IMG/VR virus record: IMGVR_UViG_3300009095_000001 | Location: 1-64,000 of that record | From: a virus | Taxonomy: Duplodnaviria > Caudoviricetes | DNA: 64,000 bases | Direction: 5' to 3' (one strand) | Shown: one piece after another, positions 20,967 to 64,000 of the stretch | Position numbering within the stretch: position 1 is the first letter of the stretch | Layout: each line of letters begins with the position of its first letter | Made by a program: the position numbers and the translations under genes | The notes under the pieces: model-generated | The model's database searches: none | What the model saw: the letters and a program-made list of their open reading frames with translations, nothing else | What the model was told of the DNA's origin: nothing

Positions 20967-21659
20967 ATGAGCACGATGACCGCTAGTGACCGCCGCCGCT
21001 TCGAGCGAGCAGCCCTCCCTCTCTTGGAGAACCTCTACGGGAACGCGATGCGCCTGACCCGTGACCCGTCCGAAGCCGAGGATCTCGTGCAGGACACCAT
21101 GGTCCGCGCGTTCCGGTTTTGGGACACCTTCCAGGAGGGCACCAACATCAAGGGCTGGCTGTTCACCATCCAGCGCAACACCTTCATCAACGGCTATCAC
21201 CGGCAGGGTCGCGCGCAGAACTTTGTGGCGTCGGTGCACTGCGAAATGCGGTCGACGTCGAGCGCATCGATCGGCTACTCGCACAGCACACCGCCCGGGC
21301 CCGATGAGATCATCCGCGAGCAGGCGACCCGTGAGGCGATTGCCGAAGCGCTCGCGCAGCTCCCCGCGGAGTACCGCCGAGCGGTCGAGCTCGCCGACCT
21401 CGAAGGGCTCTCCTACAAGGAGATCGCCGAGTTGATGGACACCCCGATCGGGACCGTCATGAGCCGGATCTACCGCGCGCGGAAGCAGCTGCATCGCCTG
21501 CTCTACGCCCACGCGCTCGAGCTGGAGATCGTCGCAGACGATGACCAGGGCCCCGGGCAGCGCCGGACCCGGTACGCCCGCACCCCGCTGGCGATCGTCG
21601 ACGACGAGCTCGAGGCCGACGAGCTCGAGGCCGCCCCGCAGCTGGAGCTCGCGCTGTGA
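20967..21659 (+). CDS. ECF sigma factor (SigH/SigR-like)
   Basis: region 2 LYGNAMRLTRDPSEAEDLVQDT..WLFTIQRNTFIN; region 4 EGLSYKEIAELMDTPIGTVMSRIYRARKQL. Confidence 0.92.
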   Translation: MSTMTASDRRRFERAALPLLENLYGNAMRLTRDPSEAEDLVQDTMVRAFRFWDTFQEGTNIKGWLFTIQRNTFINGYHRQGRAQNFVASVHCEMRSTSSASIGYSHSTPPGPDEIIREQATREAIAEALAQLPAEYRRAVELADLEGLSYKEIAELMDTPIGTVMSRIYRARKQLHRLLYAHALELEIVADDDQGPGQRRTRYARTPLAIVDDELEADELEAAPQLELAL

Positions 21660-42664: not shown

Positions 42665-44334
42665 GCTGCTTCCTGTTGTGATTTGTTGCGTGGAAGGAAC
42701 CTGTAAAACTGGCCAAAGAAATCTGCGTAGACGGTACCCGTCGGACCGTGCCGGTTGAGCTGCACGATGATCTCGGCGGTGCTCAGCTTGGTAGTCGCGC
42801 TCGCCAGCTCCTGCACTTCGGTGCGCCCGAGCGGGCAGTCGTGCAGTAGAAGCTCGAAGCGCCGCTGCTGCGCCTGGTCGTTGCGGATGGCGATCAGCTC
42901 GTCGAGATCGTTGAGCATTCGCGCGACGCCGATCCCTGTGTTCTTGCAGCCATCGACGGCGCGCTTGCGGAGGATCTTGATCTGGTCGCGGTACTCCTGG
43001 TGCTTCGGGTCGTAGACCACCGGCCGGTAGCAACCCATGAGCACGTCGCCGTACTGCTCGATCTTCCCGCTGCCCTCGTTGTCGCTCGCCTGCGGTCGTC
43101 GGCCTTGTCCGCTCTCGTCGTCGATCGGTCGCTTCTCCAAGTCGCGATTGAGCTGCGACAGCAGCAGCGACACCAGCCCGAGCGCCTTGCTCTCGTCCTT
43201 GACGAACTTGACCTTGGCGCCGGTCCGCTCGTTGATGTTCTGCTTCGCGGTCTCGGGAAAATCGACGAACGACTGCAGGAAGTCGAGCATCACGAGCGCG
43301 GGCTCGCGGACTGGTCGGCCTTGCTGATCGCGGTCGATGATCGGGTGCTCGGATCGCCAGCGCCGGATGATCCCGAACGCCTTGCGGAGATCGCCGGAGT
43401 GCTCGTCGGGGCACCATTCGATCGGCGCCGAGTCGAGCAGCTTGCGAGCCGCGTCGACGCGCTCGCGGTTGTGTTCGTACCAGCGCTGCGTCGGTGCACC
43501 GATCGCGCTCGCGTCGAGCCCGGCCAGGTTGGCGAGCAGCCGCTCGTACAGCTCCGCGTTGCGCATTTCGTCGCAGACGATGAACACGGGCGTCGGCCGA
43601 TCCTTGAGCTTCCAGCGGACCGGGAAGCCATCGACGCGATCAAACATCGCCTCGATCAGCACCTGCAACGCAAAGCTGGTCTTGCCCATCTTCGGGCGAC
43701 CGCTCACGAACAGCAGCCAACCGGGCCGCGGACCACGGCGCTTGCACATGCTGTCGAGCTTCGCAAAGCCGGTGCTGATCGACCGCGTGCGGCCGCTGAG
43801 CTCAAGCTGAAACTCGCGCTCCCAGTCGTCGCCGACTTGCTTGATCGAGAGACCCCGCTTGCCGCCGGCCCCGTTGCGCGCAACGTCGGTGAAGCGCTCG
43901 GCCGTGCGTGCGAGCTCGGCCGCCAGCTCATCGCCGGTCAGCGGGTTGGTGAGCAGCTGCTGTGCGAACGCGCGGGCAAGCTCGATCGCCGCTCGAGCTT
44001 GGGCGTGCTCGGCGATCAGGACCGCGTGCACGAGCAGCTCTTGCTTGTTGCGAGCGCAGGTCTCGGCGACCCGAGCGATAGCCTGGGGACCTCCGACGGT
44101 GCCGAGCGTGCCGCGGCTGCGGAGCTCCGACTCGAGCGTGATGCGGTCGATCGACCGGCCCTTCTCGACCAGCATCTGCAACGCGTCCCAGCACGCCTGG
44201 TGAGCTTCGATGCACATGCCGTGGTCGCCGATCACCGACCGCACGTCGGCGATGGCTTCGGGTCCCCAGCGCAGGCATGAGCCGAGCACCGACAGCTCCG
44301 CCGCGGCATCGTGGGGAAGCTGGCGGCCGATCAC
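42661..44334 (-). CDS. dnaB: replicative DNA helicase, DnaB family
   Basis: AELSVLG N-term, GRPKMGKT, DEM, DFLQ, LSQLNR, SGKIEQYGD, NRHGPTG. Confidence 0.92.
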   Translation of the reverse strand: MIGRQLPHDAAAELSVLGSCLRWGPEAIADVRSVIGDHGMCIEAHQACWDALQMLVEKGRSIDRITLESELRSRGTLGTVGGPQAIARVAETCARNKQELLVHAVLIAEHAQARAAIELARAFAQQLLTNPLTGDELAAELARTAERFTDVARNGAGGKRGLSIKQVGDDWEREFQLELSGRTRSISTGFAKLDSMCKRRGPRPGWLLFVSGRPKMGKTSFALQVLIEAMFDRVDGFPVRWKLKDRPTPVFIVCDEMRNAELYERLLANLAGLDASAIGAPTQRWYEHNRERVDAARKLLDSAPIEWCPDEHSGDLRKAFGIIRRWRSEHPIIDRDQQGRPVREPALVMLDFLQSFVDFPETAKQNINERTGAKVKFVKDESKALGLVSLLLSQLNRDLEKRPIDDESGQGRRPQASDNEGSGKIEQYGDVLMGCYRPVVYDPKHQEYRDQIKILRKRAVDGCKNTGIGVARMLNDLDELIAIRNDQAQQRRFELLLHDCPLGRTEVQELASATTKLSTAEIIVQLNRHGPTGTVYADFFGQFYRFLPRNKSQQEAA

Positions 44335-45428
44335 GGGTGACCTCCGTCGTCGAGCAGACCCTGCAACGCGATCGGGTCGTCGTCGAGATCGTCGTCATAC
44401 CGGGGCGCATAGTCGGACGTCGATCGAACAACGGCGAGTTCTGGCTCGTTGGCCATGCGGTCGAAATGCTCTTTGCGGAACCAGTAATCCGCGAGCCTGC
44501 GCATCGAATCCCAACCGCTGTCCATCACCCTGCCCCTGTCGCGATCAAGCTCTCGACGGGCTATCCGCACGACCTTGCGCGCGACGGCGAGAAGCTCCGC
44601 CGTGGTCGCGCCCTTGGGGGCGTTGGAGCGGCAGAGCGCGAGGAGTTTCTTGCGGCGCTTGTCCGTGAGTCCGAGGAATTCTACGCGGTGACTTGGCCGC
44701 CAACGGGCCCACGCATCCGCGCGCTCTGCGTTGTACTCCCGCCAGAACTGCGCGATTAGCTCATCGTCGGTTGGGTCTTGGGGCTGATCCTCGAACCCCA
44801 ACCCGGGGAGGGGGAGGGCCGAGCCCTCGCTTGGGGGTACTGGGGGACCGGGGGGAACTGGGGGAATTAATTGGGTTGGCAGATTTTCGCCAACTTTTTG
44901 CAGATTCTCGCCAACTTTTTGCAGATTCTCGCCATCGCCTGGCAGATTTTCGCCGGCAGATTTTCGCCAAATCCTGGCAGATTCCTGCAAGTCTGTTGCA
45001 GATTCTCGCCAGTCCTCGCGGGTTTTCTGCTTGGCAGATTTTCGCAACTTCTTGCGACGTTTCTCCATTTCCGCCGAATCCTCGATTGCCTCGCTCGGCG
45101 GGGTCAGCTCGACATAGCGACCTTCGACGGATGCGAGCCCGCGGTCCACGCAGCCTTTGATGTAGTCGCGGATCGTACGGTCGGCCTTGTCCGGGTGGAC
45201 GTGCTGACGAAGGTCTTCGACCAGGCTCTCGCTCGGGCCCATGCGAGACCCGTCGGCCCGCTCGTAGGCCGGGGCCTTCACCGTGCATCGACGCAGGTGC
45301 CTTTGGGCTTCGTGTGGAGCTCGGCCCCACCACCACATGAGCGTCAGCTTCTCGCCGTCGGACAATCCTGGAAGTGCCCAGATCTGCGGCGGCGCTCCGG
45401 GGGCATACGTGCCCTTGTCATCGCTCAC
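44331..45428 (-). CDS. phage replication initiator (lambda O-like organisation)
   Basis: directly upstream of dnaB, N-terminal wHTH-like segment (LSDGEKL..DRTIRDYIKGCVDRG), internal iterons, C-term LTDKRRKKL. Confidence 0.7.
   Translation of the reverse strand: MSDDKGTYAPGAPPQIWALPGLSDGEKLTLMWWWGRAPHEAQRHLRRCTVKAPAYERADGSRMGPSESLVEDLRQHVHPDKADRTIRDYIKGCVDRGLASVEGRYVELTPPSEAIEDSAEMEKRRKKLRKSAKQKTREDWRESATDLQESARIWRKSAGENLPGDGENLQKVGENLQKVGENLPTQLIPPVPPGPPVPPSEGSALPLPGLGFEDQPQDPTDDELIAQFWREYNAERADAWARWRPSHRVEFLGLTDKRRKKLLALCRSNAPKGATTAELLAVARKVVRIARRELDRDRGRVMDSGWDSMRRLADYWFRKEHFDRMANEPELAVVRSTSDYAPRYDDDLDDDPIALQGLLDDGGHP
44879..45046. repeat. iteron array / putative replication origin
   Basis: 8 copies of GCAGATTYTCGC (one variant) at 44879, 44900, 44921, 44942, 44956, 44977, 44998, 45034. 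Confidence 0.8.
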
Positions 45429-45658
45429 GATGCCCCCGTGATGACACAATCTGGCGTGTGTCCCATTGGACTGACGTCGGCCGCATATGGCCAATTGTGG
45501 CTTGCCGTGACCGTGGCCGTTCGGCTATCTTCGCTATCGCGCATCGACTGCGTGTCCCCTACTCCGCGGTTTGATGTTGAGGCTCACGGCTTGTCCCCGT
45601 GGGCCTCTGTCTTTTCTACTCTCGCGAAGACCACGCTCGCAACCGTGCGGTTTACGCT

Positions 45659-49910: not shown

Positions 49911-50585
49911 TCAGCCGCAGACCGCGGGGGCCGGCTTCTTTTTCTTTTTCTTGGCCTGCGCCGCAGCGTGGCAGGTGCAGACGGTGTCGACGACCGCCTT
50001 GGGGCAGGTGACCCCCCAGCCCGGATTTGTTGGCAAGCACGAGAACACGGCGACGAGCACCCGCAGCGCGCAGTCGAACCACGGCCCGGGCTGCGGACGG
50101 TTGGGCGGGCTGACGTCCTGCTCTCCGAGCGTGGCGATGATCAGCTCGATCCGGCTGGCGATCTCCAGCTGCGTGGCTTCCTCGCTGGGGTCGGTGCTCG
50201 TGCTGACCACCGCGACGTTTTCGAGATCGACGAGCGCCCAACTCCGCGCGTCGGCGAAGGTGGCATTGACCGCGACCACGGTTGGTGAGCCGTCGACGGG
50301 GTCGAGCTCCACGCGAGCGACGAGCAGTCCGTCGTGATCGAGAGCGTCGAGCACCACGATCCCGTCGTCGTCCAGTTGCATGACGACGGAGTGCAGCTCG
50401 TTGGGCCAGGGCGCGGGCTCGAGCTGGTGAGGGTCGAGCAGCTGCTGCGTGTCGGGCTCGGGCTTGCCGGGCTCGGCCGTGCTGGTCTCGCTCGCGTCGT
50501 TCGGGTGGTGCTGGGCTGGCCCGGCGTCGGTGCAGGCGAAGGTCAGCGCCAGGGCGGTCAGGAGTGAGGTTATGCGTGTGTGCAT
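49911..50585 (-). CDS. lipoprotein with Cys-rich C-terminal domain
   Basis: signal LLTALALTFAC; C-term WxxC-x10-C..C-x8-CxC; paralogous to 50920-51474. Confidence 0.7.
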   Translation of the reverse strand: MHTRITSLLTALALTFACTDAGPAQHHPNDASETSTAEPGKPEPDTQQLLDPHQLEPAPWPNELHSVVMQLDDDGIVVLDALDHDGLLVARVELDPVDGSPTVVAVNATFADARSWALVDLENVAVVSTSTDPSEEATQLEIASRIELIIATLGEQDVSPPNRPQPGPWFDCALRVLVAVFSCLPTNPGWGVTCPKAVVDTVCTCHAAAQAKKKKKKPAPAVCG

Positions 50586-50627: not shown

Positions 50628-50919
50628 GATTGCTGTTCAGTCTCGCCGACCCGCGCGCCGATCGGGATCAGTCTCGAGCGCGCGAGCACGAAAAAGGCGG
50701 CTCCCACCATTGGGAGCCTCTGCCCGCCGCGCGGCTCGGCTCGGTCCGCAGCATCCAGCCGCCCGCGTGGCTCGACGAGATCCCGCTGCCCGGAGCTGCG
50801 CCGCCTTGGCTGGGCGCGGCCGCTTGCTGAGCGGCGGGCCGAGCGAGAACAGCGAACAGTCTCAGCGGGCGCGACGGCGAGCGCGTGACTGGCCCGCTGG
50901 CCTGCGCAGGCTTGTCGTG

Positions 50920-51474
50920 ATGATCAACCAATCGATCCTTCTCGCTCTCCTACTCAGCCCACCGCCAAGCTCGCCGCACGAGATCGATGCGCCGGACTTC
51001 GCCGACCAGCTCGACCACGTGGACGTCACGGTCAGCGACGACGATGCGGTCGTGGTCGCCTTCGATGAAGCCGGCGAGGCCATCGCCTCGCTCTCGATCT
51101 GGGTCGACGCTCGCGGGGTGACGTGGCTCGCGACCGACTACGCGGACGGCTACTCGCTGGTCAGCGTCGACCCGATCACCGATGAAGTCACCCGCGAGGG
51201 TGATCTCGACGACGCCGTGCTCGCTGATCGCTACGAAGCGCTGCTCGATTACCTCGATGACCCGGCCGCACCATGGGAAAAGAAGGGCAAGGATAAAGGT
51301 GCCAAACCGAATCACACGTGGAAGAAGTGCGCCTTTTATGCGGTGAAGGGCGGCGTGGCGTGTGCCCTCGTCAGCCCGTTCGGCTGCGTGTGGGGTGGGG
51401 TCAAGATGGCGTGCGCGTGTGTGCCCAAGGTCGTCAAGGAATTCGAGGAGTACTCATGCCCACTCGGCCTGTAG
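50920..51474 (+). CDS. secreted protein with Cys-rich C-terminal domain
   Basis: short hydrophobic leader; WKKC-x10-C..C-x8-CAC; shares acidic beta domain with 49911-50585. Confidence 0.7.
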   Translation: MINQSILLALLLSPPPSSPHEIDAPDFADQLDHVDVTVSDDDAVVVAFDEAGEAIASLSIWVDARGVTWLATDYADGYSLVSVDPITDEVTREGDLDDAVLADRYEALLDYLDDPAAPWEKKGKDKGAKPNHTWKKCAFYAVKGGVACALVSPFGCVWGGVKMACACVPKVVKEFEEYSCPLGL

Positions 51475-51728: not shown

Positions 51729-52175
51729 CCGTGAACGCGGCAACGGCCGGCGCGCCGTGAATGGGTCGCCGACCCGGCGGTGGTGCCGAGCCGAGCCGAG
51801 CGCTCGGCAGCATCGAGCCAAGCGCGAGCGCCCACTAGCGTGAGTTTTCGTGCGTCGCGTCGACGTTCCGATCGGCCGCCTATCGACCGATCGGAACGCC
51901 GAACGAATGACCTAAAGACCACCGCGCGGGCAAGTTGAGACAACTGCGCACGCGGCGGTCGGAGCGTGGCGATCTGACACACCGGGGTGTTATCGTGCGC
52001 ACAAACGAGCCGGCCTGTTGGCGCAGACCGGCTCAAGACCACCAGGGAACGACGAATGAAGGCTCAAAACATCGATTTGGTAGATGAGCGCACTTTAGCG
52101 CGTTGGGTTACGCGTGACCAGCACCCCGGCCTGCGGGTGGGGAATGTCGTCGGGGCACGCGGTGTCCGGAGGCGC

Positions 52176-52793
52176 ATGACCGGACAACGACTGACCATCA
52201 CCGCGGCTCTTGCCGCCTTGCTCGTGATCGCCGGCTGCGATCCCGAGCTCGACACCACCAACACCGAATTGCGCAGTATCTCGCCGATCAGCTGGTCGAG
52301 CGTGGGCTGCATGACCAACGGCGGGACCGATCGCTGCTACGCGCGGACGGACGAGGGGACCGACTTTCGGATCCCCGTCGTGAGCGCGTGCTCGCTGGCC
52401 GCCAAGGTCGAGAGCGGCGAATACGTCGAGACCGACGACGGCTGGTATTGGAGCTGCGACTACGGGCGCTCGCCGGAGACCTTCACCGACGCGATGTGCT
52501 TCCACGATTCGGCGACGCACGTGGTGTGCTTCGGCGGGAGCGACGGCTGGTACACGAAGGTCGAGCCGTACTGCGCGGGCGCGAAGTACAACGTGCCGGT
52601 CGATCCGTACTGGCCGGAGACGGCGTGCCGCGGAGGGCTGGCGAGCACCTACCACAACTACGATGGCATCTACGTCGTCGACGGTGGCACGCCTTGGTGG
52701 GGCCGCGCGGCGAATGGAGACGACGCGTTCTACGGCTCGCCGTCGTGCGCCATCCCGACCCTTCACCCCGCGGGCAACCCCTACGATTGCTGA
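52176..52793 (+). CDS. Cys-rich lipoprotein
   Basis: GGAGG RBS; lipobox LLVIAGC. Confidence 0.7.
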   Translation: MTGQRLTITAALAALLVIAGCDPELDTTNTELRSISPISWSSVGCMTNGGTDRCYARTDEGTDFRIPVVSACSLAAKVESGEYVETDDGWYWSCDYGRSPETFTDAMCFHDSATHVVCFGGSDGWYTKVEPYCAGAKYNVPVDPYWPETACRGGLASTYHNYDGIYVVDGGTPWWGRAANGDDAFYGSPSCAIPTLHPAGNPYDC

Positions 52794-52835
52794 AAGGAGT
52801 CCGCCATTCCTCGATGACGGGATTCAGTGACCACC

Positions 52836-53297
52836 ATGCGTAACGCAATTCTAACAACCATCCTCCTTTGTCTCTCCATGCCCGCTTGTGACGCCGACGA
52901 TGAGGACTTTCGTGGCGATTACGACAGCATGCTCGTCGACTGCGACCAATATGGCCAATGCTGGGCGATTCAGCCTGGCGGCTGGGATGCTTGGGCGGCA
53001 GCCATCACGAATGTCCAGATCGATGATGCAGTGGCAGCTGGCGTGCTGGTGTCGACGCGCACCAAGATCGCTGGCGATCAGTGCTGGCGGATTGCAGGGA
53101 CCGACGGCCACATGTGCGCAGTGTTCCTCGGCACGGTCAAGCTGATCGGCCGCCCCGAGTCCGAGTTGGTCCTCACGTCGCCAGCGCAATCGTGCTGGTT
53201 CGAGGGGCTGTGGGACTACAACCGGTCGGGCTCCGGCATGTGCTTCGGGGTCATTGAAGGCGTAGCTGTCCAGCTTAGCTACGCACCCCCGTTCTAG
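52836..53297 (+). CDS. Cys-containing lipoprotein
   Basis: MRNAILTTILLCLSMPAC lipobox-like. Confidence 0.65.
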   Translation: MRNAILTTILLCLSMPACDADDEDFRGDYDSMLVDCDQYGQCWAIQPGGWDAWAAAITNVQIDDAVAAGVLVSTRTKIAGDQCWRIAGTDGHMCAVFLGTVKLIGRPESELVLTSPAQSCWFEGLWDYNRSGSGMCFGVIEGVAVQLSYAPPF

Positions 53298-53317: not shown

Positions 53318-53352
53318 AAAGCGACCAGGCGAAGCTTGGTCGCTTTTTGTTT
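53318..53352. terminator. intrinsic terminator between convergent genes, possibly bidirectional
   Basis: aaagcgaccaggc-gaa-gcttggtcgcttt followed by ttgttt. Confidence 0.8.
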
Positions 53353-54397
53353 ACCTCTGCGGGTTGACTACGCGGATGGTGGATTCACGAATCTTGCACG
53401 TAGCAGCGGCGTTTGGATCACACTTCAATCGATAGAGTCGGCCCACGGACACGCCTGGAGTCAGTCGCCTGGCGATGCGAAAGAACGACCACTTCGCTGC
53501 GTCAGAGTTGTCGTTCCAAAATACCGTGACGGGGTTCCCCTGGTCGCTATATGTTCCGGATCCGTCGTCGTATTGTAGCTGTAAGACCACGTTGTCTCCG
53601 CCGCCGGTGTTGACCTGCCCCCATCCCTCCGCGATGACGAGCACCTCGCTAGACTGCGGCAAACAGCGAACACTAGTGACCAGCGCAAGATTGGTAGCTT
53701 GAAGCGCGGTCTCGGCCTCTTGCTCTCCTGTCGCGTAGGTCCACCCGTTTGTGCTGTGGTGCACATAGTTCAGCGCAGGGTCGTCCGTCGGCCGATAGAC
53801 CAGATTTCCGTTGCTATCGGCTACGAGTTCACGCTCGCTCGCCGGGGCAACGGCCGGCGAGAGCTTGACTACTCCGGTTGTCAATTTCGCTCCGGTGGTG
53901 ATCGAAACGTCGGCCTTGTGCTCCGCTGTGTCGTTGAACGCCGCAGGTTTATTGAACGTGGCCGTGTTATCGAATGTCGCGGTATTCTTGAACACCGCTG
54001 CTCCGTTGAAGGTGAACGTGACCGTCGCCGACGTCGACACCGGACCGTTGAATTCCGTGGTCCCGTTGAAGTCCGCCTCGGACCCGTTCGCCATGATCAG
54101 CGAGCTCCCGGACTCAAACTCCACCGTCGCGTTGTCGCTCACAAACAACTGCGCGCCGTCGAGAAGCGTCGGCGTTCCCGACCACTGCCAGCTATTCAGC
54201 GCCGTGGCGACCTGGTCGAATACCAGCCCGTCCAACGTCCCGCCCTGGCTCAGCACGATGTTGACGAGCTCCATCTGAACCGAGTTGCACCACTCAGGGC
54301 TGAGCTGCGTGGGTGGAGTGTCCGTCGTGCCTTTGAACCCGTGGAGCCCGGGCCCGAACATGTTGGCGACAGCCGTAGGAGTGAGGATGACCTGCAT
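53351..54397 (-). CDS. tail-fibre-like protein (Mu S-type N-terminus)
   Basis: MQVILTPTA..FGPGLHGF..TQLSPEWCNSVQMELVNIV..G.TLD..DQVATAL; central xxF(N/D/K)xx hexapeptide repeats. Confidence 0.65.
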   Translation of the reverse strand: MQVILTPTAVANMFGPGLHGFKGTTDTPPTQLSPEWCNSVQMELVNIVLSQGGTLDGLVFDQVATALNSWQWSGTPTLLDGAQLFVSDNATVEFESGSSLIMANGSEADFNGTTEFNGPVSTSATVTFTFNGAAVFKNTATFDNTATFNKPAAFNDTAEHKADVSITTGAKLTTGVVKLSPAVAPASERELVADSNGNLVYRPTDDPALNYVHHSTNGWTYATGEQEAETALQATNLALVTSVRCLPQSSEVLVIAEGWGQVNTGGGDNVVLQLQYDDGSGTYSDQGNPVTVFWNDNSDAAKWSFFRIARRLTPGVSVGRLYRLKCDPNAAATCKIRESTIRVVNPQR

Positions 54398-54451: not shown

Positions 54452-56299
54452 GTGGACGGGACCGAACGCAGCGACGACGACGAGTTCGTGCTGCTGCAGT
54501 ATCAGCGCGAGTGGGTCGATGAGCTGATCGTCAACAGCGTCTGCCCGGTCTGCAGGTCAGCCAGCGTCGCGCCTCCGGGGCCGATGGGACTGAGCAAAGA
54601 GGAGCGTGAGCTGGCTATCGCTGAGCAGCGAGAGCTCGCTGCTCAGCTCGAGGGGCACGATACCCGGTGGCTCGCGAAGACCGAAGATCAGATCGCTAAT
54701 CTCGAAAAGCGGTTGGTGGCGGATGGCAAATGCGATCGCTACGGCTGCTACGGCTGGCTAGTCGCCAAGAAGAAAAACTTCACCGTCGTCGCTGAAAAGA
54801 GCCGCCAGATCGGATTCACGTGGGGCACCGCCTGCGGAGCGGTGATCGTCGCATCGCTGCCGAGGAACCAGGGCGGGCTCGACGTCTACTACATGTCGAC
54901 GGGGCAGGATGATGCTCGCGACTTCATCAACGAGTGCATGCGGTGGATCATCGAGAAGTTCTCGCCGATCCTCGAGCGCTGCCCGGAAGTCGAAGAATTC
55001 GATTGGATCGACGACGACGATCCCGTAGCCATCCAGACCTTCCGCATTCGGTTCCCGAGCGGGTTCGCTATCTACGCGCTGCCAAGCCGACCTGCCCGTA
55101 TGCGAGGCAAGAAGCGGTGCCTAGCGATCCTCGACGAAGCGGCGCAAAACGACCTCGACGCGTGGATCAAGGCCACGGGCGCTCTCAAGTTCTGGGGTGG
55201 GCAGCGTGCGATCATTTCGACGCACTACGGATCGGATAGCGCCTTCTACAAGTACGTCCAGCGCGTCAAGGCGAGCATTGCGGACGGCAAGCGGATGGCG
55301 TCGCTGCATAGCGTGTTCCTGCATGACGCGCTTCGGCAGGGCGTCTATCGCCGCATGTGCAGGCTTGCGCGCCCACAGGTCCGGTGGACGCAGGAGCTCG
55401 AGGACGCGTGGGTAGAGGAACTGCGAAACGAGTACGGCGATGGCTTCGACGAGGAGTGCCTGGGTATCGTCGCGGGCGCGAGCAATCAGCTGATCGGCCG
55501 CCAGCTCGTCGTCGCTGCGCAGACGCTGTCGCCCGCCGAATGCCCGATCGTCGAGATCTGCGGCGGCGATGAACCCCGCATGTGGATCAACGGCGACCTG
55601 GTCGAGAGCTCGGACAAGCCTTGGCCGCTGCCCACCGAGAGCGTGCAGGAGACCGCTTCGCCCGAAGAGCGCGAGCGGATGGTGCGTGGCTGGCTCGACG
55701 CGCACCTCGCATCGACCCTCAAGCGCATCAACGCGCTCGGCCACGACATTCACGTCGGCGACGACTACGGCCGCTCGGGCGATATCAGCTACAAGGTCAT
55801 CGGCACGAACGACTCGGCCAACCGTCGCGCGGTCCGGCTGGTGATCGAGTGCGATCGCGTCCCGTTCACGATCCAGTCCCAGATCGCCGACTACTGTTGG
55901 CCGATCCTGACTCGCCTGCGCAGCGGCTCGGGCGACGGCAACGGCAACGGCTCGCAGTGTGCCGAGCGGGCGAAGGACATGACCCGCGGGAAGATGGCGG
56001 TGACCATGCGGCTACCCGACACCGCATTTACTCGGCTCCGCACTCGGCTCGAGCACGGGACCCTCGCGCTTCCGCGGCACAGCAAAGAGCTCGCCGACGA
56101 CCTGACCTCGCTCAAGCGCAAGGGCAATGGCAAGGGCATCGACGCACCGCAACGCAGGACCGATCGCGGCCAGCAGCGGCACGCCGACGGTGCCTACGCG
56201 CTTGCCCACTTCGAGCACAGCATTGATACTGACGGTCAGGTCGTGCAGCTTTCGTCTGTTCGACGCGTGAAAAGGTCACTGTTCCCGACGAGGCGATGA
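54452..56299 (+). CDS. terL: terminase large subunit (Mu gp28-like)
   Basis: LLQYQREW, EKSRQIGFTW, LPSRPARMRG, ILDEAA, ISTHYG, GDDYGRSGD, HADGAYALA; GTG 54452. Confidence 0.88.
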   Translation: MDGTERSDDDEFVLLQYQREWVDELIVNSVCPVCRSASVAPPGPMGLSKEERELAIAEQRELAAQLEGHDTRWLAKTEDQIANLEKRLVADGKCDRYGCYGWLVAKKKNFTVVAEKSRQIGFTWGTACGAVIVASLPRNQGGLDVYYMSTGQDDARDFINECMRWIIEKFSPILERCPEVEEFDWIDDDDPVAIQTFRIRFPSGFAIYALPSRPARMRGKKRCLAILDEAAQNDLDAWIKATGALKFWGGQRAIISTHYGSDSAFYKYVQRVKASIADGKRMASLHSVFLHDALRQGVYRRMCRLARPQVRWTQELEDAWVEELRNEYGDGFDEECLGIVAGASNQLIGRQLVVAAQTLSPAECPIVEICGGDEPRMWINGDLVESSDKPWPLPTESVQETASPEERERMVRGWLDAHLASTLKRINALGHDIHVGDDYGRSGDISYKVIGTNDSANRRAVRLVIECDRVPFTIQSQIADYCWPILTRLRSGSGDGNGNGSQCAERAKDMTRGKMAVTMRLPDTAFTRLRTRLEHGTLALPRHSKELADDLTSLKRKGNGKGIDAPQRRTDRGQQRHADGAYALAHFEHSIDTDGQVVQLSSVRRVKRSLFPTRR

Positions 56300-56300
56300 A

Positions 56301-58667
56301 ATGACCAAAGCAGCCAAGAGCCGAGCGAGCGGTGCGAAATCGGGTGTGAAGTCGGTAGCGAAGTCGGGGGCAAGGGGAGCGAGGGTGAGCGCGAAGCGGC
56401 CAGCAGCGAAGGTCAGCAAGCGCGGCGACAGCAAGCCCGCGGCCAAGGCCACCGCACGCACCGACGGCACCAAGACCACGCAGAAGATCGGCGACATTGC
56501 TGCGATCCTGCGCGGCGAGTTCACGCCCGGCATGCCCGGCTGGCTGTTCGGCGAAGCGGCCTATGCTTGGTATCTCAGCAACGGCGTCGCGCGGCAGATG
56601 ATCGGCCGCTTCGCCAGCCTGATGACGAAGCCAGCCCACAAGTACACGCACACCGACGTGCGCGACTTCGACTGGGCCCCCACGATCAGCAAGCTCGACG
56701 ACCTCAAGTACAAGATCGCGTGCCGCATGGCTGCGACGTGGGCGTTCGTTTTCGGCGCGGGAATCATCGAGCACGTGGTCGACGATTGCGATCGCGACGG
56801 CGAGCCGCTCGAGCTCGTCAACGTCCGCGCGTACAAGGGCGTCCGCATCCACACCTCCTACAGCCTGCGGCCGCAACACGGCTACGACTGGAAGACCGCC
56901 GAGTGGTTCGAGACCGTCCGCGTGGGAGCTCGCCGGCTCATCCATCGCTCGCGACTCACGATCATGGTCGTCACCGACACGCCCGACGGCATCGTGATCC
57001 CGTCGATCAGCGGATGGCCGCCGAGCTGGCTCGAGAGCATCTACCAGTCCTTCAACGAGTGGACGAAGATCGAGTGCGACGTGTCGGCGATCGTCCGCAC
57101 GTTGTCGATCTTGCACCTGCAGCTCGAAGGCTGGGCGAAAGCAGCGGCGAACCCAGACAGCGTCGAGGCAGCAGCCGTCGCGGCTCGGATCGAGCAAGCC
57201 CTGGAAGGCCTGAGCTCGCACGGTCTGCTCGTGACCGACAAGGCGGACGCGCTCGGCGAAGCTTCCCGCCAGATCACCGGGCTCGACAAACTCGTCGAGC
57301 GCAAGGCCCTGCGTGCAGCGGCGAGCTCAGGCGTTCCGAAAGAGCTGCTGCTCATGGAGGCCGAGGGCAACCTCGGGCTCAACTCCGCGCCAATCGACGC
57401 CTACTACGATCTTGTCAGCGGCTGGGCGGAGCAGATGATCGTGCCCGCGATCACCCGCGCGTCCGAGATCGCGCTCGCGGCTCAGCGCTACAAGGCCAAG
57501 CTGGCGGGCGAGCTGCTCGTCGTGCCCTCGCAATTCATCGTGGTTCAGGACGCGATCCAGCAGGCGACCGGAAAAGAGCGGGCCGAGCAGCGCAGGGCCA
57601 ACGCGGACGCGCGCGCTTCCGATGCGACGAAGACCGGCGTACCGCTCGAGGTGATCCTCGGCGACCCCACGCTGCGCGAGGACTACCCGGATATCGACGC
57701 GTTCCTCGAAGCCAAGGCCACGCGCGAGCAGCAAGCCCGCGAGAAGGCGCAGGCGTCCGGGCTCGACAACCCCGAAGGCGAGGATCTGATCAGCGCCGCG
57801 CAGGCGGCCAAGGCGTTCGGGATCACCGGGAGCACGCTGATCAAGTACGCCAAGCAAGGCATCGTCCGCGGGCACCAGGTTGGTGGTCGGTGGAAGTTCT
57901 ATCTCTCGCAGGTGACTCAGGCGCTCATGGGCAAGTCGCCCGAGCAGATCGAGCAAGCCGTGGATCAGCGGCTCGACGATATCGGCCTGTCCGAGTCCAC
58001 CAAGTTTGGCGACGTGTGGGGCGCGAGCGATGCGATGCGGGAGATCTTCGCGGTGCTCGAGCGCATCCGCGACACCACGCTCTCGGTGCTGCTGCTGGGC
58101 GAGACCGGCACCGGCAAAGAGGGCATCGCTCGGGGGCTCCACGTCTCCGGGCCATTCGTCGCGCTCAACTGCGCCGAGCTCGACTACGAACCGCGCGAGG
58201 CTGCGAAGCGACTGCGCGAGGCTCTGACCGCGGCGGCCGGCGGCACGCTGTTCTTGGATGAAGTCGGCGACTGCCCGCGGGACGTTCAATCCGCGCTGCT
58301 CCGCATCCTGGCGACCGAGCACGAAGCCCGCATCGTCTCGGCAACGTCGCGCTCCATGGACTGGCTGCGGCCGGATCTGTACTACCGGCTGGCCGAGGTC
58401 GAGATCGAGATCCCACCGCTGCGCGATCGAGAGGCCGACGTCATCACGATCGCGCAGGGCATCTACGAGAGCTACACCAGCGAGCGCGGCTACGAAGCGG
58501 CCGAGCCTGCGTTCACCGAAGCCGCGATCGCAACGATGCTGGCCTACCCGTGGATGGGCAACATCCGCGAGCTTAAGTCGGCCGTGTGCCGCGGCGTCGA
58601 GCTGGCGCCTCGGGCCGCTCCGGTCGGCATCGAGCACCTGCAGCTCAACATGCGAGGCCAGCGTTGA
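56301..58667 (+). CDS. portal protein (DUF1073-type) fused to MerR/excisionase-type HTH and NtrC-type AAA+ domain
   Basis: position after terL; YLSNGVARQMI, WAFVFGAGII, SWLE, AASSGVPKELL..GLN..YYDLV portal motifs; SAAQAAKAFGIT..GGRWKF HTH; GETGTGKE, LNCAEL, GGTLFLDEVG, DLYYRL, PPLRDR, WMGNIREL. Confidence 0.82.
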   Translation: MTKAAKSRASGAKSGVKSVAKSGARGARVSAKRPAAKVSKRGDSKPAAKATARTDGTKTTQKIGDIAAILRGEFTPGMPGWLFGEAAYAWYLSNGVARQMIGRFASLMTKPAHKYTHTDVRDFDWAPTISKLDDLKYKIACRMAATWAFVFGAGIIEHVVDDCDRDGEPLELVNVRAYKGVRIHTSYSLRPQHGYDWKTAEWFETVRVGARRLIHRSRLTIMVVTDTPDGIVIPSISGWPPSWLESIYQSFNEWTKIECDVSAIVRTLSILHLQLEGWAKAAANPDSVEAAAVAARIEQALEGLSSHGLLVTDKADALGEASRQITGLDKLVERKALRAAASSGVPKELLLMEAEGNLGLNSAPIDAYYDLVSGWAEQMIVPAITRASEIALAAQRYKAKLAGELLVVPSQFIVVQDAIQQATGKERAEQRRANADARASDATKTGVPLEVILGDPTLREDYPDIDAFLEAKATREQQAREKAQASGLDNPEGEDLISAAQAAKAFGITGSTLIKYAKQGIVRGHQVGGRWKFYLSQVTQALMGKSPEQIEQAVDQRLDDIGLSESTKFGDVWGASDAMREIFAVLERIRDTTLSVLLLGETGTGKEGIARGLHVSGPFVALNCAELDYEPREAAKRLREALTAAAGGTLFLDEVGDCPRDVQSALLRILATEHEARIVSATSRSMDWLRPDLYYRLAEVEIEIPPLRDREADVITIAQGIYESYTSERGYEAAEPAFTEAAIATMLAYPWMGNIRELKSAVCRGVELAPRAAPVGIEHLQLNMRGQR

Positions 58668-59041
58668 CGATCAGCGAGCGCCAGTTTCCGATCATCGCTC
58701 CGCGCGACAACAGGGGCCGCGTGCTTGGGGGCTGCCCGGAGTCCGTGCCCTGGTCGTTCGTCGAGCCCCACCGCGCGCAGGCGCTGGCGAATCATTCGCA
58801 GACCTTGGAGCGGTTGGCCGAGCGTGGCGGGCTCGCGCCGAGTGAGCTGCACGCGATCGTGCACGATCGGCCGTGGGTACCGATGGACCGCGACAAGGCG
58901 GTGGCTTGGCTGGTCGAGCGAGTGCAGACCATGGCGATGGAGCAGGCGCTGCGGCGGGCTCAAGTCGAATCGCTGGACAGCTACACGGTGACGACGGTTG
59001 GGCCGGTGCAGTCAGGCACGTTGCGGGAGTTCAAGCGGTGA
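58664..59041 (+). CDS. phage hypothetical protein
   Basis: TTG start overlapping portal stop; QTLERLAERGGL motif. Confidence 0.55.
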   Translation: MTISERQFPIIAPRDNRGRVLGGCPESVPWSFVEPHRAQALANHSQTLERLAERGGLAPSELHAIVHDRPWVPMDRDKAVAWLVERVQTMAMEQALRRAQVESLDSYTVTTVGPVQSGTLREFKR

Positions 59042-59439
59042 CGAAGGGCGATCGCGTCTGCATCATCGGCGGTCCGCGGGTCGGCAAGACGACCCTGGCC
59101 AGCTTGATGGAGAACGTGCTGCACACCGACGACCTGGTCGGCCGGCTCGAATGGTCGGCCGCGAGCGAGCTGGTAGCGACCGACTGGCTCATGCGTCCCG
59201 GGCCGTGGGTAATCGAGGGCGTTGCGGTCGCGCGGGCGCTGCGAAAGTGGCTCGCCGCCAACGCCAAGGGCAAGCCGTGCGATCGCGTGCTCGAGCTGAC
59301 CAAGCCGCTCGTGGAGCTGTCGAAGGGTCAGGCGGCGATGGCCAAGGGGCACGAGACGGTGTGGCAGCAAGTGCGCCCGCTGCTGCTCGAGCGCGGAGTG
59401 GTGGTGGAGCTGGGCGCGTTGCAGGAGATCCAGCGGTGA
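59038..59439 (+). CDS. small P-loop NTPase (adenylate-kinase-like)
   Basis: RVCIIGGPRVGKTTLA, LHTDDL, WVIEG. Confidence 0.7.
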   Translation: MTKGDRVCIIGGPRVGKTTLASLMENVLHTDDLVGRLEWSAASELVATDWLMRPGPWVIEGVAVARALRKWLAANAKGKPCDRVLELTKPLVELSKGQAAMAKGHETVWQQVRPLLLERGVVVELGALQEIQR

Positions 59440-60101
59440 CCATTGGCGAGCGACTGCGACGCGAACGGAAGCGCGCCGGGCTGACTCAGGCTGAGCTCGC
59501 GCTCGCGCTCGATGTGCACCATGCCTACGTGTGGAAGATCGAGAACGGGAAACGTAGGCCGTCGAAGCGCCTGATCGACAGGTGGTCGGCTGCCACGGCA
59601 TCGACGCAAGCTGACCTGTTGCTCGAAGGCCCGGCCCTGTTCGACCTTGCGTTTCCGATCGACCGACGGATAGACGACCCGTTCACCGCGCGGCGCGTGC
59701 TCGACGTCGTGCCGGCGGGCGTTCGAAAGCAGGTTTCGGTCTGGCCAAGCAGCAATGAGACGGTGCTGCGGCTGCGCGCTCGCGGGTCAGCGTTGCCGTC
59801 TGCGATCGGCCTAGCCGGCACAACGGCCCCGGGCATCGGTCAACTCGGGACACCGACAGTCTCGCCGCTGCGCGCAGCCGATGAGCTCGTCGCCTGGATT
59901 CGAGCAGCAGACGAACGCCATGCAGCGGAGCAAGTCGAGGCACGCATGGCCGCTGCTGCTGCTCGTGGATGCGTCACGATCGGCAGGTTCGGCGCGGTGT
60001 TTGTGGCTCGCGTGGCCGCTCTGAGCAAGCACGCGTCGGTGGCATTGCAGGATTTGGTCGAAGAATCGCCAATCGGTCTTTTTGTGCCAGCCGCATGGTA
60101 G
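59436..60101 (+). CDS. XRE-family HTH protein
   Basis: IGERLRRERKRAGLTQAELALALDVHHAYVWKIENGKRRPS. Confidence 0.8.
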   Translation: MTIGERLRRERKRAGLTQAELALALDVHHAYVWKIENGKRRPSKRLIDRWSAATASTQADLLLEGPALFDLAFPIDRRIDDPFTARRVLDVVPAGVRKQVSVWPSSNETVLRLRARGSALPSAIGLAGTTAPGIGQLGTPTVSPLRAADELVAWIRAADERHAAEQVEARMAAAAARGCVTIGRFGAVFVARVAALSKHASVALQDLVEESPIGLFVPAAW

Positions 60102-60303: not shown

Positions 60304-62088
60304 ATGACCCAAGCCAGCACGCAAAGCGCCGCAGCAACCGACGCCGCGGTAGCTGATCCTGCGGTGACCGGCAGCGAGGGCGCGGCCGATCCCGGCCAGG
60401 CTGCCGAGCCACCGCCCGCCGATCCCGGCCAAGCTCCGGCCGCGGAGCCCGGCCAAGGCGAGCCCGGCCAGGGTGACGATGGCGAGCTGCCGACCGCCGA
60501 CAGCATCACGCTGGCGCTTCGCGGCGTCGCTGCTCTGCCGCCGATCAAGCGGGAAGCTCGAGGCTGGACCGACAAGGCGATCGCGGGCGCGATGGCGCTG
60601 CTGACTTCGATGGGGGTAGCCCCGCATGCCGACGCAGGCGAACGGGTCTACCGCACCTGCACGATGGACTTCGCGCTGGGGTCCGAGGATCGCGTCGCGG
60701 TGGATCGGGCGCTCGCCATCGCCGACGAGCTCGGATCGCAAGCCGACGGTGCCAAGGTCGACGCGGCGCAGATCAACGCGATTGCGGAGCGGCTACGCGC
60801 TGACGGATTCGCCGACAAGGTCACGACCGACGGCCGGCTGATCGTCACGGGCTACGCCGCGCGCACGGGCTCGCAGCTCTACGGCGACGGCAAGAGCACC
60901 TGGTACGAGTACCGGAGCGAGGACGAAGTCGAGAAAAGCCTCAAGAGCTTCGACTTCGCGACGTTCACCGACGACCACCCGCCGGTGCTCGTGACGGCGG
61001 ATAACTGGCGCGAGTACGCCAGGGGCATGCTCGGCACGGGTGCGGAGCTGCTGCCGCCCGACGAAGACGGCTTGCGCTTCGTCAAGGTGCAGATCTGCGT
61101 CGGCGACATTGCGGTGATCCGCAAGATGCGTGACGGCAAGGTGCAGCTGTCGACCGGCTACACCACGATCGCGGTGCGCGATCCTGGCGTCGATGCGCAG
61201 GGCATCCGCTACACGTTTCGGCAGACCGACATTCAGGTCAACCACCAATCTCTCGTCGATGAAGCTCGCGCGGGCGCCAAGGCTCGCGTGCTGATCGACG
61301 GCGCTTTTGTTTTCGAGGCCAGCAAGGACGACGTCATGACGACCAACAACGCGAACGCGAACACCCCGAAGCCGAAGACCGATCAGCCCGAGGGCGCGAT
61401 CCCGTCGAAGAAAGACCAGCTCGACCCCGAGGCCGCGACGGGTTTGCTCGACGCGATCAAGGCTCTCCTCAACGGAGAGATCGAGCCCGCGGGCGCCTAC
61501 GCCAAGATCGCCGAAGTGCTCGGCCTCGATCCGGCGATGGTCACTCAGCACCTGGGCGGTGGCGAGATCATGGAGCTGGACGGCGTCAAGCTGCTGGTCA
61601 GCAAGGACGCGGCCGCGAAGCTCCGCGCTCGCGAGCAGAAGCTCAGCACCGACGCTGCCCAGCGCGATACCGATCTCGCAGCGACCAACGGCGAGCTCGC
61701 CGGGCTGCGGCGCACGGTCGAGAAGCTCGAGGCCGATGCGATCGCCCGCGCGACGGTCGACCTGGAGAACGAGATTGCCCCGCTGTGCCCGCAGCTCGTG
61801 AAGTCGTGGGCGGACGGCAAGCGCCCCGCCACGATGACGAAGATGCGCGAGGCGGCGATCCTCGATCTCGATCCGCTGGCGAAGGTCGATCTCGACAAGG
61901 CGCGCGGGACTGACGAGAAGCCTCCGCCGACCTACGACGCGTTCGTGGAGTCGCTCTACGGCTCGACCAAGCGCCATGCTGCGGTTCGGGCCAAGGCCAC
62001 GACGACGAACTCCGACAGCCGCTTCTCGGCCCCGGCCACGATCAAGACCGGGGGCTTCCACGGCAATACCGGAACCCCCGGCAACTGA
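60304..62088 (+). CDS. DUF2213-type prohead protease/scaffold
   Basis: TTDGRLIV..ARTGSQLY, TFTDDHP, VTADNW, QLSTGY, QTDIQVNH..LVDEARAG; C-terminal coiled-coil scaffold. Confidence 0.85.
   Translation: MTQASTQSAAATDAAVADPAVTGSEGAADPGQAAEPPPADPGQAPAAEPGQGEPGQGDDGELPTADSITLALRGVAALPPIKREARGWTDKAIAGAMALLTSMGVAPHADAGERVYRTCTMDFALGSEDRVAVDRALAIADELGSQADGAKVDAAQINAIAERLRADGFADKVTTDGRLIVTGYAARTGSQLYGDGKSTWYEYRSEDEVEKSLKSFDFATFTDDHPPVLVTADNWREYARGMLGTGAELLPPDEDGLRFVKVQICVGDIAVIRKMRDGKVQLSTGYTTIAVRDPGVDAQGIRYTFRQTDIQVNHQSLVDEARAGAKARVLIDGAFVFEASKDDVMTTNNANANTPKPKTDQPEGAIPSKKDQLDPEAATGLLDAIKALLNGEIEPAGAYAKIAEVLGLDPAMVTQHLGGGEIMELDGVKLLVSKDAAAKLRAREQKLSTDAAQRDTDLAATNGELAGLRRTVEKLEADAIARATVDLENEIAPLCPQLVKSWADGKRPATMTKMREAAILDLDPLAKVDLDKARGTDEKPPPTYDAFVESLYGSTKRHAAVRAKATTTNSDSRFSAPATIKTGGFHGNTGTPGN
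60388..60475 (+). repeat. (D/E)PGQ low-complexity repeats
   Basis: ga(t/g)cccggcca x4 encoding DPGQA/EPGQG. Confidence 0.6.
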
Positions 62089-62131: not shown

Positions 62132-62935
62132 ATGACGACCACGCTTCGCTACCAGATCAATCCGACTCGCGGCCAGCGGGTCTCCAGCAACCCCACGCGC
62201 TCGCGGCTGTGGCCCGGCAACAACACGATCAAGACGCTCACGGTCGGTGGCACCTATGTCGACGGGACCTACAGCTACACGATCGGCGGCGTCGAGGTGT
62301 CGGTGAGCCTGACCGGCAGCTCTCTTGCTGGTGCCGCGGCAGCGCTCAAGGCCAAGCACGACTCGCTGCCGACCGCGCTCGAGCAGGCGGAGGCCATCGT
62401 CGATGGTGCGGTCTTGCGCCTCGACTCGCGTACGCCCGAGACGACTTTCACGCTGGGGAGCTTGACGGCCCCCGGCACGGCCACGCTCACGGAAGACGAC
62501 GAGACCGAGTCGAGCGGTGCCCGGCTGCGGCCCGGTCTGTTCGTGGCGTTGCACAACACCAAGCCCGAGTGGCTCCGCCGTCTGACGACGGGCGACACCG
62601 CGGCCGCGATCTTCGGCGTCACGCAGGAGGGCCCCGACATGGAGACCAGCGACGGCGACGAGGACTCCGTCGACGGCTGGGATCCGGGAGCGATGGTCAC
62701 CGTGCAGGGGCACGGTGAGATCCCCGTGATCTGCGAGCAAGAGGTCACCAACGTCAACGCGGCGGTGTACGTCCGCGTCGTCGCGACGGGCGACGAAGAG
62801 GCGGGCGCGGCTCGTCTCGATGCAGACAGCGGCGACGCGGTCGCGGCCAGCAACGTCCGTTGGTCGGGCCTCAGCTGGACCGACGATGACGGCCAGATCA
62901 TCGCGATGGTGATCATCAGCAACCCCGCGGCCTGA
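62132..62935 (+). CDS. head decoration/cement protein
   Basis: between scaffold and capsid; GLFV..IFGV..VTVQGHGEIPV..VYVR. Confidence 0.65.
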   Translation: MTTTLRYQINPTRGQRVSSNPTRSRLWPGNNTIKTLTVGGTYVDGTYSYTIGGVEVSVSLTGSSLAGAAAALKAKHDSLPTALEQAEAIVDGAVLRLDSRTPETTFTLGSLTAPGTATLTEDDETESSGARLRPGLFVALHNTKPEWLRRLTTGDTAAAIFGVTQEGPDMETSDGDEDSVDGWDPGAMVTVQGHGEIPVICEQEVTNVNAAVYVRVVATGDEEAGAARLDADSGDAVAASNVRWSGLSWTDDDGQIIAMVIISNPAA

Positions 62936-62980: not shown

Positions 62981-64000
62981 ATGCCCTTCGACAAGCCCAA
63001 CCGGAAGCCCCTCTACGACTTCAAGGACCCGGCGAACCGCCACGACGAGGAGACCCTTGTTCCGGTGCTGGACAAGGCCGCTCAGCTCGCCGCCCAGAAG
63101 TGGGGCGACACCGAGATCGCCCGCAAGCTCGGATTCGACTCGGGCCAGATCGCGTCGCTGTCTCGCTGCGCGACGACGGCCTTCATCGAGGGCTTCTACC
63201 GGCGTCAAGCCGCCGAGACCCCTTGGGCCAACGGCGAGATCATCACGATCACCGACGGTGGCGTGGGTATCGGCGCCACGCGGCTCGAGTGGGGCGAGAC
63301 TGCGGTCCGCAACCCGTCGCAAAACTACGGCTTGACGGCGCTCGACCAGAGCCCCGAGCGAGCGCTCGACCTCGCCGTGCGGATGCACGAGGCGAAGCCC
63401 GGCAAGATCGCCCACAAGATCCAGCTCGGGTTCCACGAAATGGCGCAGGCCGCCATGGCTGGCTGGAACAAGATGAAGGACAAGGGCGACACGCTTCGCG
63501 AGCAGCACATGCTCGACTTCAACGAGGCGATCCTCCGCGGCATCCCGGCGGCCGGCAAGCTCGGGATCACCAACTACCCCGGCATCAAGCGGATGGTCTC
63601 GACCATCGACTGGGCGACCGCCAACGCCGACGTCATCTACGACGAGTGGACCCAGGCGAAGCGGCTCATGTATACGGACGCGTCCAACCGCGAGCGTGCG
63701 ATCAAGCCGACCAAGACCCTGATCCCGCTGAGCGTGGATGAGCACTTCTCCGACGAACTCTTCAACCCCAGCGGTGGCGACACCACGCTGAAGACGTTCA
63801 TCGAGAGGAACAACCGCGGGCACGAGGTCATGATGGACGACTCGCTGCGGAGCGCCGACACGTTCGGCCACGCGGGCGCGATCCTGCTCGCGCCCGAGGC
63901 CGACTCGATCCAGGTGACCTGCCCCGTCTTCGCGCAGGTCCAGCCGCCGGTGGAAGTGGCCGGCAACCAGTGGGTGATCGAGATCGAGATCTGGACGCTC
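62981..64000 (+). CDS. major capsid protein (DUF2184-type), truncated by window end
   Basis: open frame from ATG 62981 (MPFDKPNRK..); EMAQAAMAG..FNEAILRG..KLGITNYPG..DWATA..KPTKTLIP. Confidence 0.8.
   Translation, partial: MPFDKPNRKPLYDFKDPANRHDEETLVPVLDKAAQLAAQKWGDTEIARKLGFDSGQIASLSRCATTAFIEGFYRRQAAETPWANGEIITITDGGVGIGATRLEWGETAVRNPSQNYGLTALDQSPERALDLAVRMHEAKPGKIAHKIQLGFHEMAQAAMAGWNKMKDKGDTLREQHMLDFNEAILRGIPAAGKLGITNYPGIKRMVSTIDWATANADVIYDEWTQAKRLMYTDASNRERAIKPTKTLIPLSVDEHFSDELFNPSGGDTTLKTFIERNNRGHEVMMDDSLRSADTFGHAGAILLAPEADSIQVTCPVFAQVQPPVEVAGNQWVIEIEIWTL

Follow-up and report, generated by a model that had tools for sequence, protein, structure and literature searches.

A phage portal protein joined to a winged helix-turn-helix and to a host-type sigma-54 activator ATPase without its sigma-54 loops

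Phage portal proteins that carry host-derived domains have been described before. The closest systems are the polyvalent portal- and MuF-fused effectors (Iyer et al., 2017, PMC5512222), in which, as in the protein described here, a PF06381 portal is followed by a host-derived C-terminal domain, an Acb1-like 2H domain being one example; portal-fused 2H, InPase and PBECR domains have been proposed in that study to be injected effectors. In contrast to these, the cargo in our protein is the AAA+ domain of a sigma-54 activator (bEBP), a disarmed machine part and no obvious enzyme effector, and the terms 'sigma-54' and 'AAA+' have zero occurrences in PMC5512222. Portal-fused cargo is already known and the bEBP cargo is a new variety of it; in a literature search of incomplete coverage, no portal-bEBP fusion was found. 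The portals Pam3 gp3, E217 gp19 and Pa193 gp19 share with our phage the portal fold and a head module of DUF2213 protease, cement and capsid proteins. The N- and C-terminal extensions of Pa193 gp19 are not resolved in its structure and are comparable to the extensions seen here; however, no bEBP domain has been reported for the Pam3, E217 and Pa193 portals, and the clade described here adds a winged helix-turn-helix (HTH) and an ATPase.

On the ATPase side, NtrC1, PspF, FleQ and the FHA-type bEBPs of Myxococcota have the same fold, ATP-site motifs, arginine fingers and lid, with identities of up to 40%. Unlike these proteins, the fused domain is without GAFTGA, a sensor domain and a Fis HTH, in this member also without L2, and it is joined to a virion protein. 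Caulobacter NtrC likewise has a bEBP scaffold from which the sigma-54 loop is lost; however, regulators of that type are chromosomal and have retained both a sensor domain and a DNA-binding HTH at the C-terminus. TyrR, NtrX and VpsR are GAFTGA-less bEBP regulators as well.

The window analysed here is a stretch of 64,000 nucleotides from a complete virus record of 97,537 bp that has terminal repeats and encodes a tyrosine integrase. The head operon in this window, with the fused gene divided into its parts, reads as follows.

54584..56299 (+), terminase large subunit, start codon inferred (phrog_2, E 9e-21)
56301..56465 (+), N-terminal tail of the fused protein, residues 1-55, basic and disordered (pLDDT <50), ending in R53-x-D55
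56466..57758 (+), portal body of the PF06381 / HI1409 type, Pam3-E217-T1 fold (Pfam, PHROG, Foldseek)
57789..57929 (+), MerR/excisionase-type winged HTH (HTH_17; BldC-like chain 6ama, E 0.003)
57969..57977 (+), R557-x-D559 in a flexible linker, putative head-protease cut site (alignment; pLDDT <50 at 553-560)
57981..58667 (+), bEBP-derived AAA+ ATPase and lid, without L1, L2 and Fis HTH (Pfam, alignment)
58664..59439 (+), two small variable ORFs behind the portal, one of 125 aa and one of 133 aa, P-loop kinase-like
59436..60101 (+), XRE-HTH fused to a Cas6 (Cmx6)-derived domain, occupying the MuF gene slot
60304..62088 (+), DUF2213 head maturation protease/scaffold (Pfam, PHROG)
62132..62935 (+), cement protein of the E217 gp24 / Pam3 gp6 family (Pfam)
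62981..64000 (+), major capsid protein, continuing to 64072 (Pfam)

The fused gene at 56301-58667 (+) begins directly behind the terminase gene, whose stop lies 1 nt upstream of the portal start, and is an open frame of 788 aa with zero internal stops. PF06381 portal, winged HTH and bEBP AAA+ domain are encoded on this one frame, and both ORF and Pfam analysis confirm the single uninterrupted portal-HTH-AAA+ frame that a sequence-only reading of this DNA had claimed. Pfam places Phage_portal_3 at residues 88-437 (76.8 bits, against a curated cut-off of 33.8), HTH_17 at residues 497-538 (19.7 bits, below the cut-off of 27 in this protein and above it in the relatives P0121 and P0124), Sigma54_activat at residues 574-702 and AAA_lid_14 at residues 708-787. 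Judged by its Pfam match, the portal part is a member of the PF06381 (HI1409 / DUF1073) family; the region also matches phrog_146 (E 4e-27), and its Foldseek matches are the portals of Pam3, Pa193, E217 and T1 (8hds, 9b41, 8fvh and 9l01; E 1e-11 to 1e-13), those of the ATPase part being NtrC1, PspF and FleQ. By likeness to Pam3 and Pa193, the fused portal would form a dodecamer at the capsid vertex. In the structure model of the 788-aa protein (pTM 0.45) the three parts fold as separate units, with disorder at residues 1-60, 485-489 and 553-560. Separate translation of an HTH-AAA+ product was considered and rejected. The methionine found at the HTH start of most relatives is a CTG codon here and occupies a structural position; the linker has no methionine, and the invariant M579 is the residue usual in bEBPs.

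The same fusion occurs in 34 other 90%-identity clusters from JGI, Logan, ENA and NCBI, at 34-80% identity (2/34 are partial), and a profile search added four further distant fused clusters and one remnant, which gives about 39 other clusters altogether. Gene order is conserved among the distant members that were fetched, with the portal gene between the terminase and the head protease/capsid genes. The remnant (L094, 2687-4610) lies in a Nannocystaceae MAG and is decaying: its portal start is gone and there is a frameshift in the AAA+ part, in which loop 2 is intact and GAFTGA is absent. Its NCBI label is 'anti-CBASS Acb1 family protein'. We found no intact prophage with the fusion in a named genome and no portal-AAA+ fusion among GenBank phages. 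Among 401 sampled Myxococcota genomes there were three matches to PF06381, of which the one fully read (L102) is without AAA+, and a GTDB scan with generic bEBP patterns returned cellular activators only. The AAA+ part is 40% identical to FHA-type bEBPs, a type with named members from Polyangiaceae and Kofleriaceae among others, and it starts where their AAA+ domain starts. Based on the Nannocystaceae remnant and on this likeness, the hosts of these uncultured phages are probably myxobacteria, and the myxobacterial context suggested earlier holds.

Conservation was counted in an alignment of 33 full-length fused rows, in which 57 of ~209 AAA+ positions are invariant as against 40 of ~383 portal positions. 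Decay of the ATPase part had been named beforehand as something that would refute the reading, and by these counts the part is not decaying. Invariant in all 33 rows are the Walker A lysine K606, the switch residue N623, D653/E654 of Walker B, T682 of sensor I, the arginine fingers R690/R696 and R756 of sensor II. Codon changes within the AAA+ motifs are mostly at third positions. The leucine that precedes the Walker B aspartate (58254-58256) is encoded by TTG in 6/6 aligned GC-rich genomes, perhaps by chance. In bEBPs, the loops L1 and L2 are the sigma-54 contacts and deliver the work (PMC7175178). Compared with NtrC1, ~12 L1 residues including GAFTGA, 12 residues of L2 and 6 after sensor I are missing, and PF00158 model positions 63-84 are without a match in the domain. 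No member read has GAFTGA, neither the 33 rows nor P0121-P0124 nor L094; the QxKLLR lysine has gone too. The protein ends with the lid; no Fis HTH follows it, and there is no PF02954 and no receiver match. Alignment and Pfam are in this respect in agreement with the sequence-only reading, which had described intact Walker A/B and sensor II motifs together with a missing GAFTGA loop, loop 2 and Fis HTH. Loop 2 is retained in P0122, P0124, P0033-P0035 and L094, and stumps of loop 1 survive in these least query-like members; GAFTGA was therefore probably lost first and loop 2 later, and the family can be seen as a natural deletion series for bEBP loops. As read from the alignment, strong selection acts on what is a host bEBP domain with its sigma-54 loops deleted, and, being without the defining bEBP feature, the ATPase is not a sigma-54 activator.

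The nearest relatives outside the fused clade are PF06381 portals with the same HTH and without AAA+. In these proteins the HTH is followed by nothing (for example in P0125, P0127, P0129, P0131, P0135 and P0137), by MuF (P0128 and P0133), by an Acb1-like 2H phosphoesterase (P0138 and P0181, and by eye P0143) or, as a weak match, by DUF3140 (P0144). More broadly, a MerR/excisionase-type winged HTH closes the portal in a large PF06381 group (P0125-P0181), some members having further cargo behind it and others none. Since the contents of the slot vary among the sister portals, the ATPase is one filler of a swappable slot on a portal-HTH chassis. The winged HTH is part of this chassis, which by similarity ranks predates the ATPase. 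Barrel and crown point into the capsid in portals of known structure (PMC9942802), which places the C-terminal slot inside the head. No description of a DNA-binding domain on a portal crown inside the capsid was found.

Two positions in the fused protein resemble each other. An [R/K]-x-D motif stands immediately before the portal fold in 32/33 rows, and its aspartate D55 is nearly invariant in the 33 fused portals together with 27 distant portals of 18-49% identity. A few residues before the ATPase, an R-x-D motif is found in 29/33 rows and the aspartate in 33/33, while the linker ahead of the ATPase varies by up to ~70 residues and retains the Asp motif throughout. The same signature recurs among the neighbouring head proteins: in the DUF2213 protease, R165-x-D167 is invariant ahead of the protease domain, in which His225 and Ser283 are invariant; in the major capsid protein D22 is invariant in the N-terminal arm, with R-x-D in this phage; and a sister MuF begins with R-x-D. 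The head proteases of some relatives (L002 11846-14146; L086 13099-15069) have extra N-terminal modules, absent here, that open with R-x-D. It has been reported that the first 93 residues of the Pa193 portal, which belongs to the same head class, are undetected by LC-MS and that residues 529-765 are without density (PMC11456595). Taking these motifs together, they are probably cut sites of the DUF2213 protease, and the N-terminal tail (residues 1-55) is likely to be removed at maturation. We consider it quite probable that DUF2213 cuts after both D55 and D559, so that the HTH stays on the portal and a 25-kDa ATPase, residues 560-788, is freed. However, 4/33 linkers are without the arginine, and D55 could alternatively be a helix cap; in a literature search of incomplete coverage, no proof of Asp-specific cutting was found. 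The motif offers a candidate cut rule for the as yet unstudied DUF2213 proteases. The earlier idea of a packaged and cleaved cargo gains support from the swappable slot and the conserved RxD linker, its cleavage part standing as a prediction.

In sister phages, the gene that usually follows the portal is MuF; a search for it in three near-complete AAA-portal genomes was negative. The MuF position is occupied by the XRE-Cas6 gene of ~221 codons, which often overlaps the portal stop, lies 7 kb away in one genome and is not directly behind the portal in L091 and L094; about 34 clusters of this gene were found, travelling with the AAA-fused portals, and several of them are on contigs that match those of the fused portals in length. 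The two small ORFs that separate portal and XRE gene in our phage are missing in L086, L087, L090 and L093, and the 133-aa P-loop kinase-like ORF (59038-59439, +) is present in L002 too. The Cas6-like domain has a double ferredoxin RAMP fold and Cas6/Cmx6 sequence kinship. It aligns to 8fcj_B, chain B of the type I-B CAST Cascade, with a VIA-align Z of 13.4 (rmsd 2.7, 156 aligned); 2/8 members match the Cmx6 model TIGR02807, hhalign to host Cmx6 gives E 2e-6, and searches retrieve Cmx6-like host proteins. An Atlas search with the domain was empty and a PDB sequence search gave chance matches only. The glycine-rich C-terminal loop of Cas6 is absent in 8/8 rows and replaced by a short non-glycine stretch. 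Neither a repeat family resembling an array nor an Rfam CRISPR match was found in the phage genome itself, in searches that single repeats could escape. The gene is a candidate cas-derived anti-CRISPR. It resembles the viral cas-derived anti-CRISPRs AcrIB3 and AcrIB4 in being a phage copy of a Cascade subunit, and AcrIB3 has been shown to assemble into Cascade and to inhibit it (10.1101/2023.06.24.545427). In contrast to AcrIB3 and AcrIB4, the subunit here is Cas6/Cmx6, it is fused to XRE and sits in a late head operon, and its role is a putative one. A complex prediction for the AAA+ domain with the XRE-Cas6 protein scored 0.10, which speaks neither for nor against a link between the two.

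The reading that we tentatively favour, at clearly less than even probability, is that the ATPase is a packaged cargo, freed by the head protease, and that it works against host sigma-54 activators as a decoy subunit that has no grip. According to this model, the portal would be made as a precursor consisting of tail, portal, winged HTH and ATPase, and 12 ATPase copies would be packaged, since solved relatives place that end of the protein inside the capsid. The DUF2213 protease would then cut after D55 and D559, and the HTH would stay behind on the portal and hold DNA there. The free 25-kDa ATPase would reach the cytoplasm either by being ejected together with the DNA or out of portal protein left over late in infection, which is the weakest step of the proposal. 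There it would join rings of host FHA-type sigma-54 activators and bind and burn ATP without a grip on sigma-54, and as a result a sigma-54-driven stress or defence response would be dampened. It is known that bEBP rings pull region I of sigma-54 through their pore (PMC11839083); a subunit without pore loops could therefore make the ring slip. The decoy reading is supported by the swappable slot, by the RxD motifs, by the likeness to FHA-type bEBPs, by the invariant ATP-site and inter-subunit arginines, by the loss of GAFTGA and of the QxKLLR lysine, and by a neighbour gene that is a second host machine part without its key loop. On the other hand, a poison could do just as well without a working Walker B, and the invariance of E654 suggests a need for hydrolysis itself. 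In addition, the host has many bEBPs, and twelve copies are few by comparison.

Myxobacteria lean heavily on sigma-54 control. Known portal cargoes are enzymes directed against nucleotides, RNA or the cell wall, and a disarmed activator ATPase in the portal slot, a domain of 228 residues, would represent a way to interfere with sigma-54 control. An extended proposal, which we regard as decidedly doubtful, is that the head operon encodes two decoys, the virion-packaged and protease-released grip-less activator and a mimic of Cas6 that lacks the RNA loop; if so, host activator rings would be jammed from injection onward, crRNA maturation would be jammed too, and this would be a first case of sigma-54 transcription shut down by a phage via an injected decoy subunit.

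It is also possible, though somewhat unlikely in our view, that the ATPase serves the head pathway. Tethered domains might form ATP-dependent rings, two hexamers per dodecamer, that serve as a nucleus or a shield for the portal while it assembles, or that handle DNA when it is packaged or ejected, and the domains may be cut off later. The invariance of the full catalytic set and the missing MuF, the usual partner of sister portals, would fit such a role, and loss of L1 and L2 would, by inference, open the ring pore. An ATPase acting inside the head would be a second motor, on the side of the portal opposite the terminase. However, sister portals assemble without the ATPase, the disordered and variable linker imposes no fixed geometry (pTM 0.45), an intact terminase is encoded upstream, and bEBPs deliver their work via the very loops that have been lost (PMC7175178). 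The 'DNA-binding ATPase ring' of the sequence-only reading, with HTH and ATPase as one unit, has lost ground, as the HTH is older, is present in many sister portals without the ATPase and would stay with the portal after the likely cut.

Release of the cargo against a target other than bEBPs, as a sink for a signal nucleotide or as a decoy aimed at a host regulator or at an immune sensor of ATPase or portal folds, we consider unlikely; the cargo readings combined have nevertheless a better than even chance. Acb1-like 2H enzymes occupy the same slot in sister portals, and some bEBP AAA+ domains bind c-di-GMP; the VpsR entry 7v2b is among our structure-search matches. Host defences do sense portals, as in the binding of SpbK to YonE (PMC13728456). 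Yet a sink or decoy needs no invariant arginine fingers, Walker B or sensor II, and no ligand-specific change was seen.

Quite improbable is a moonlighting role in which the unassembled full-length protein regulates phage genes with its HTH on DNA and the ATPase oligomerising, as in Caulobacter NtrC. There are precedents, as GAFTGA-less bEBPs act as DNA-binding regulators (10.1101/2023.06.06.543975) and portals can moonlight, as T7 gp8 does (cited in PMC13728456). However, the HTH is older than the ATPase and is retained without it, the likely cut parts the two, and the protein has no sensor domain and no Fis HTH. Furthermore, we counted five one-mismatch sigma-54 sites in the phage as against 13 control sites, a stricter pattern gave 0, 3 and 0 sites in three genomes, and in these three genomes there was neither a second bEBP nor an excess of sigma-54 sites; regulation of phage sigma-54 promoters, which had also been suggested, is in consequence unsupported. 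Misassembly, chance read-through or a decaying passenger, to which the frameshifted AAA+ of the Nannocystaceae remnant might point, has next to no probability, since the fusion recurs in ~39 other clusters from four sources (34 of them excluding the misassembly that had been feared at the domain junctions), the AAA+ part is conserved above the portal, and codon changes in its motifs are mostly at third positions.

Some further features of the genome may be mentioned. A tail-fibre-like gene of lower GC (53351-54397, -; phrog_1858/phrog_6859) lies directly upstream of the terminase on the opposite strand, and L091 has a gene of similar size and position. Between the replication and head genes there is a cluster of small cysteine-rich genes with signal-peptide-like starts, predicted to be secreted or lipoprotein-like (49911-50585, -; 50830-51315, +; 52059-53297, +). 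Within a replication-initiator-like gene of 387 aa (44331-45494, -), 21-nt tandem repeats at 44857-45067 are likely to be origin iterons. A 658-aa protein (genome 87994-89970; L085 7994-9970) has by eye an FHA-like start followed by a coiled coil, with no AAA+ and no PHROG match. The genome also encodes an ECF-like RNA polymerase sigma factor (20967-21659, +; phrog_1740, E 6e-34) and one tRNA gene (genome 87446-87518).
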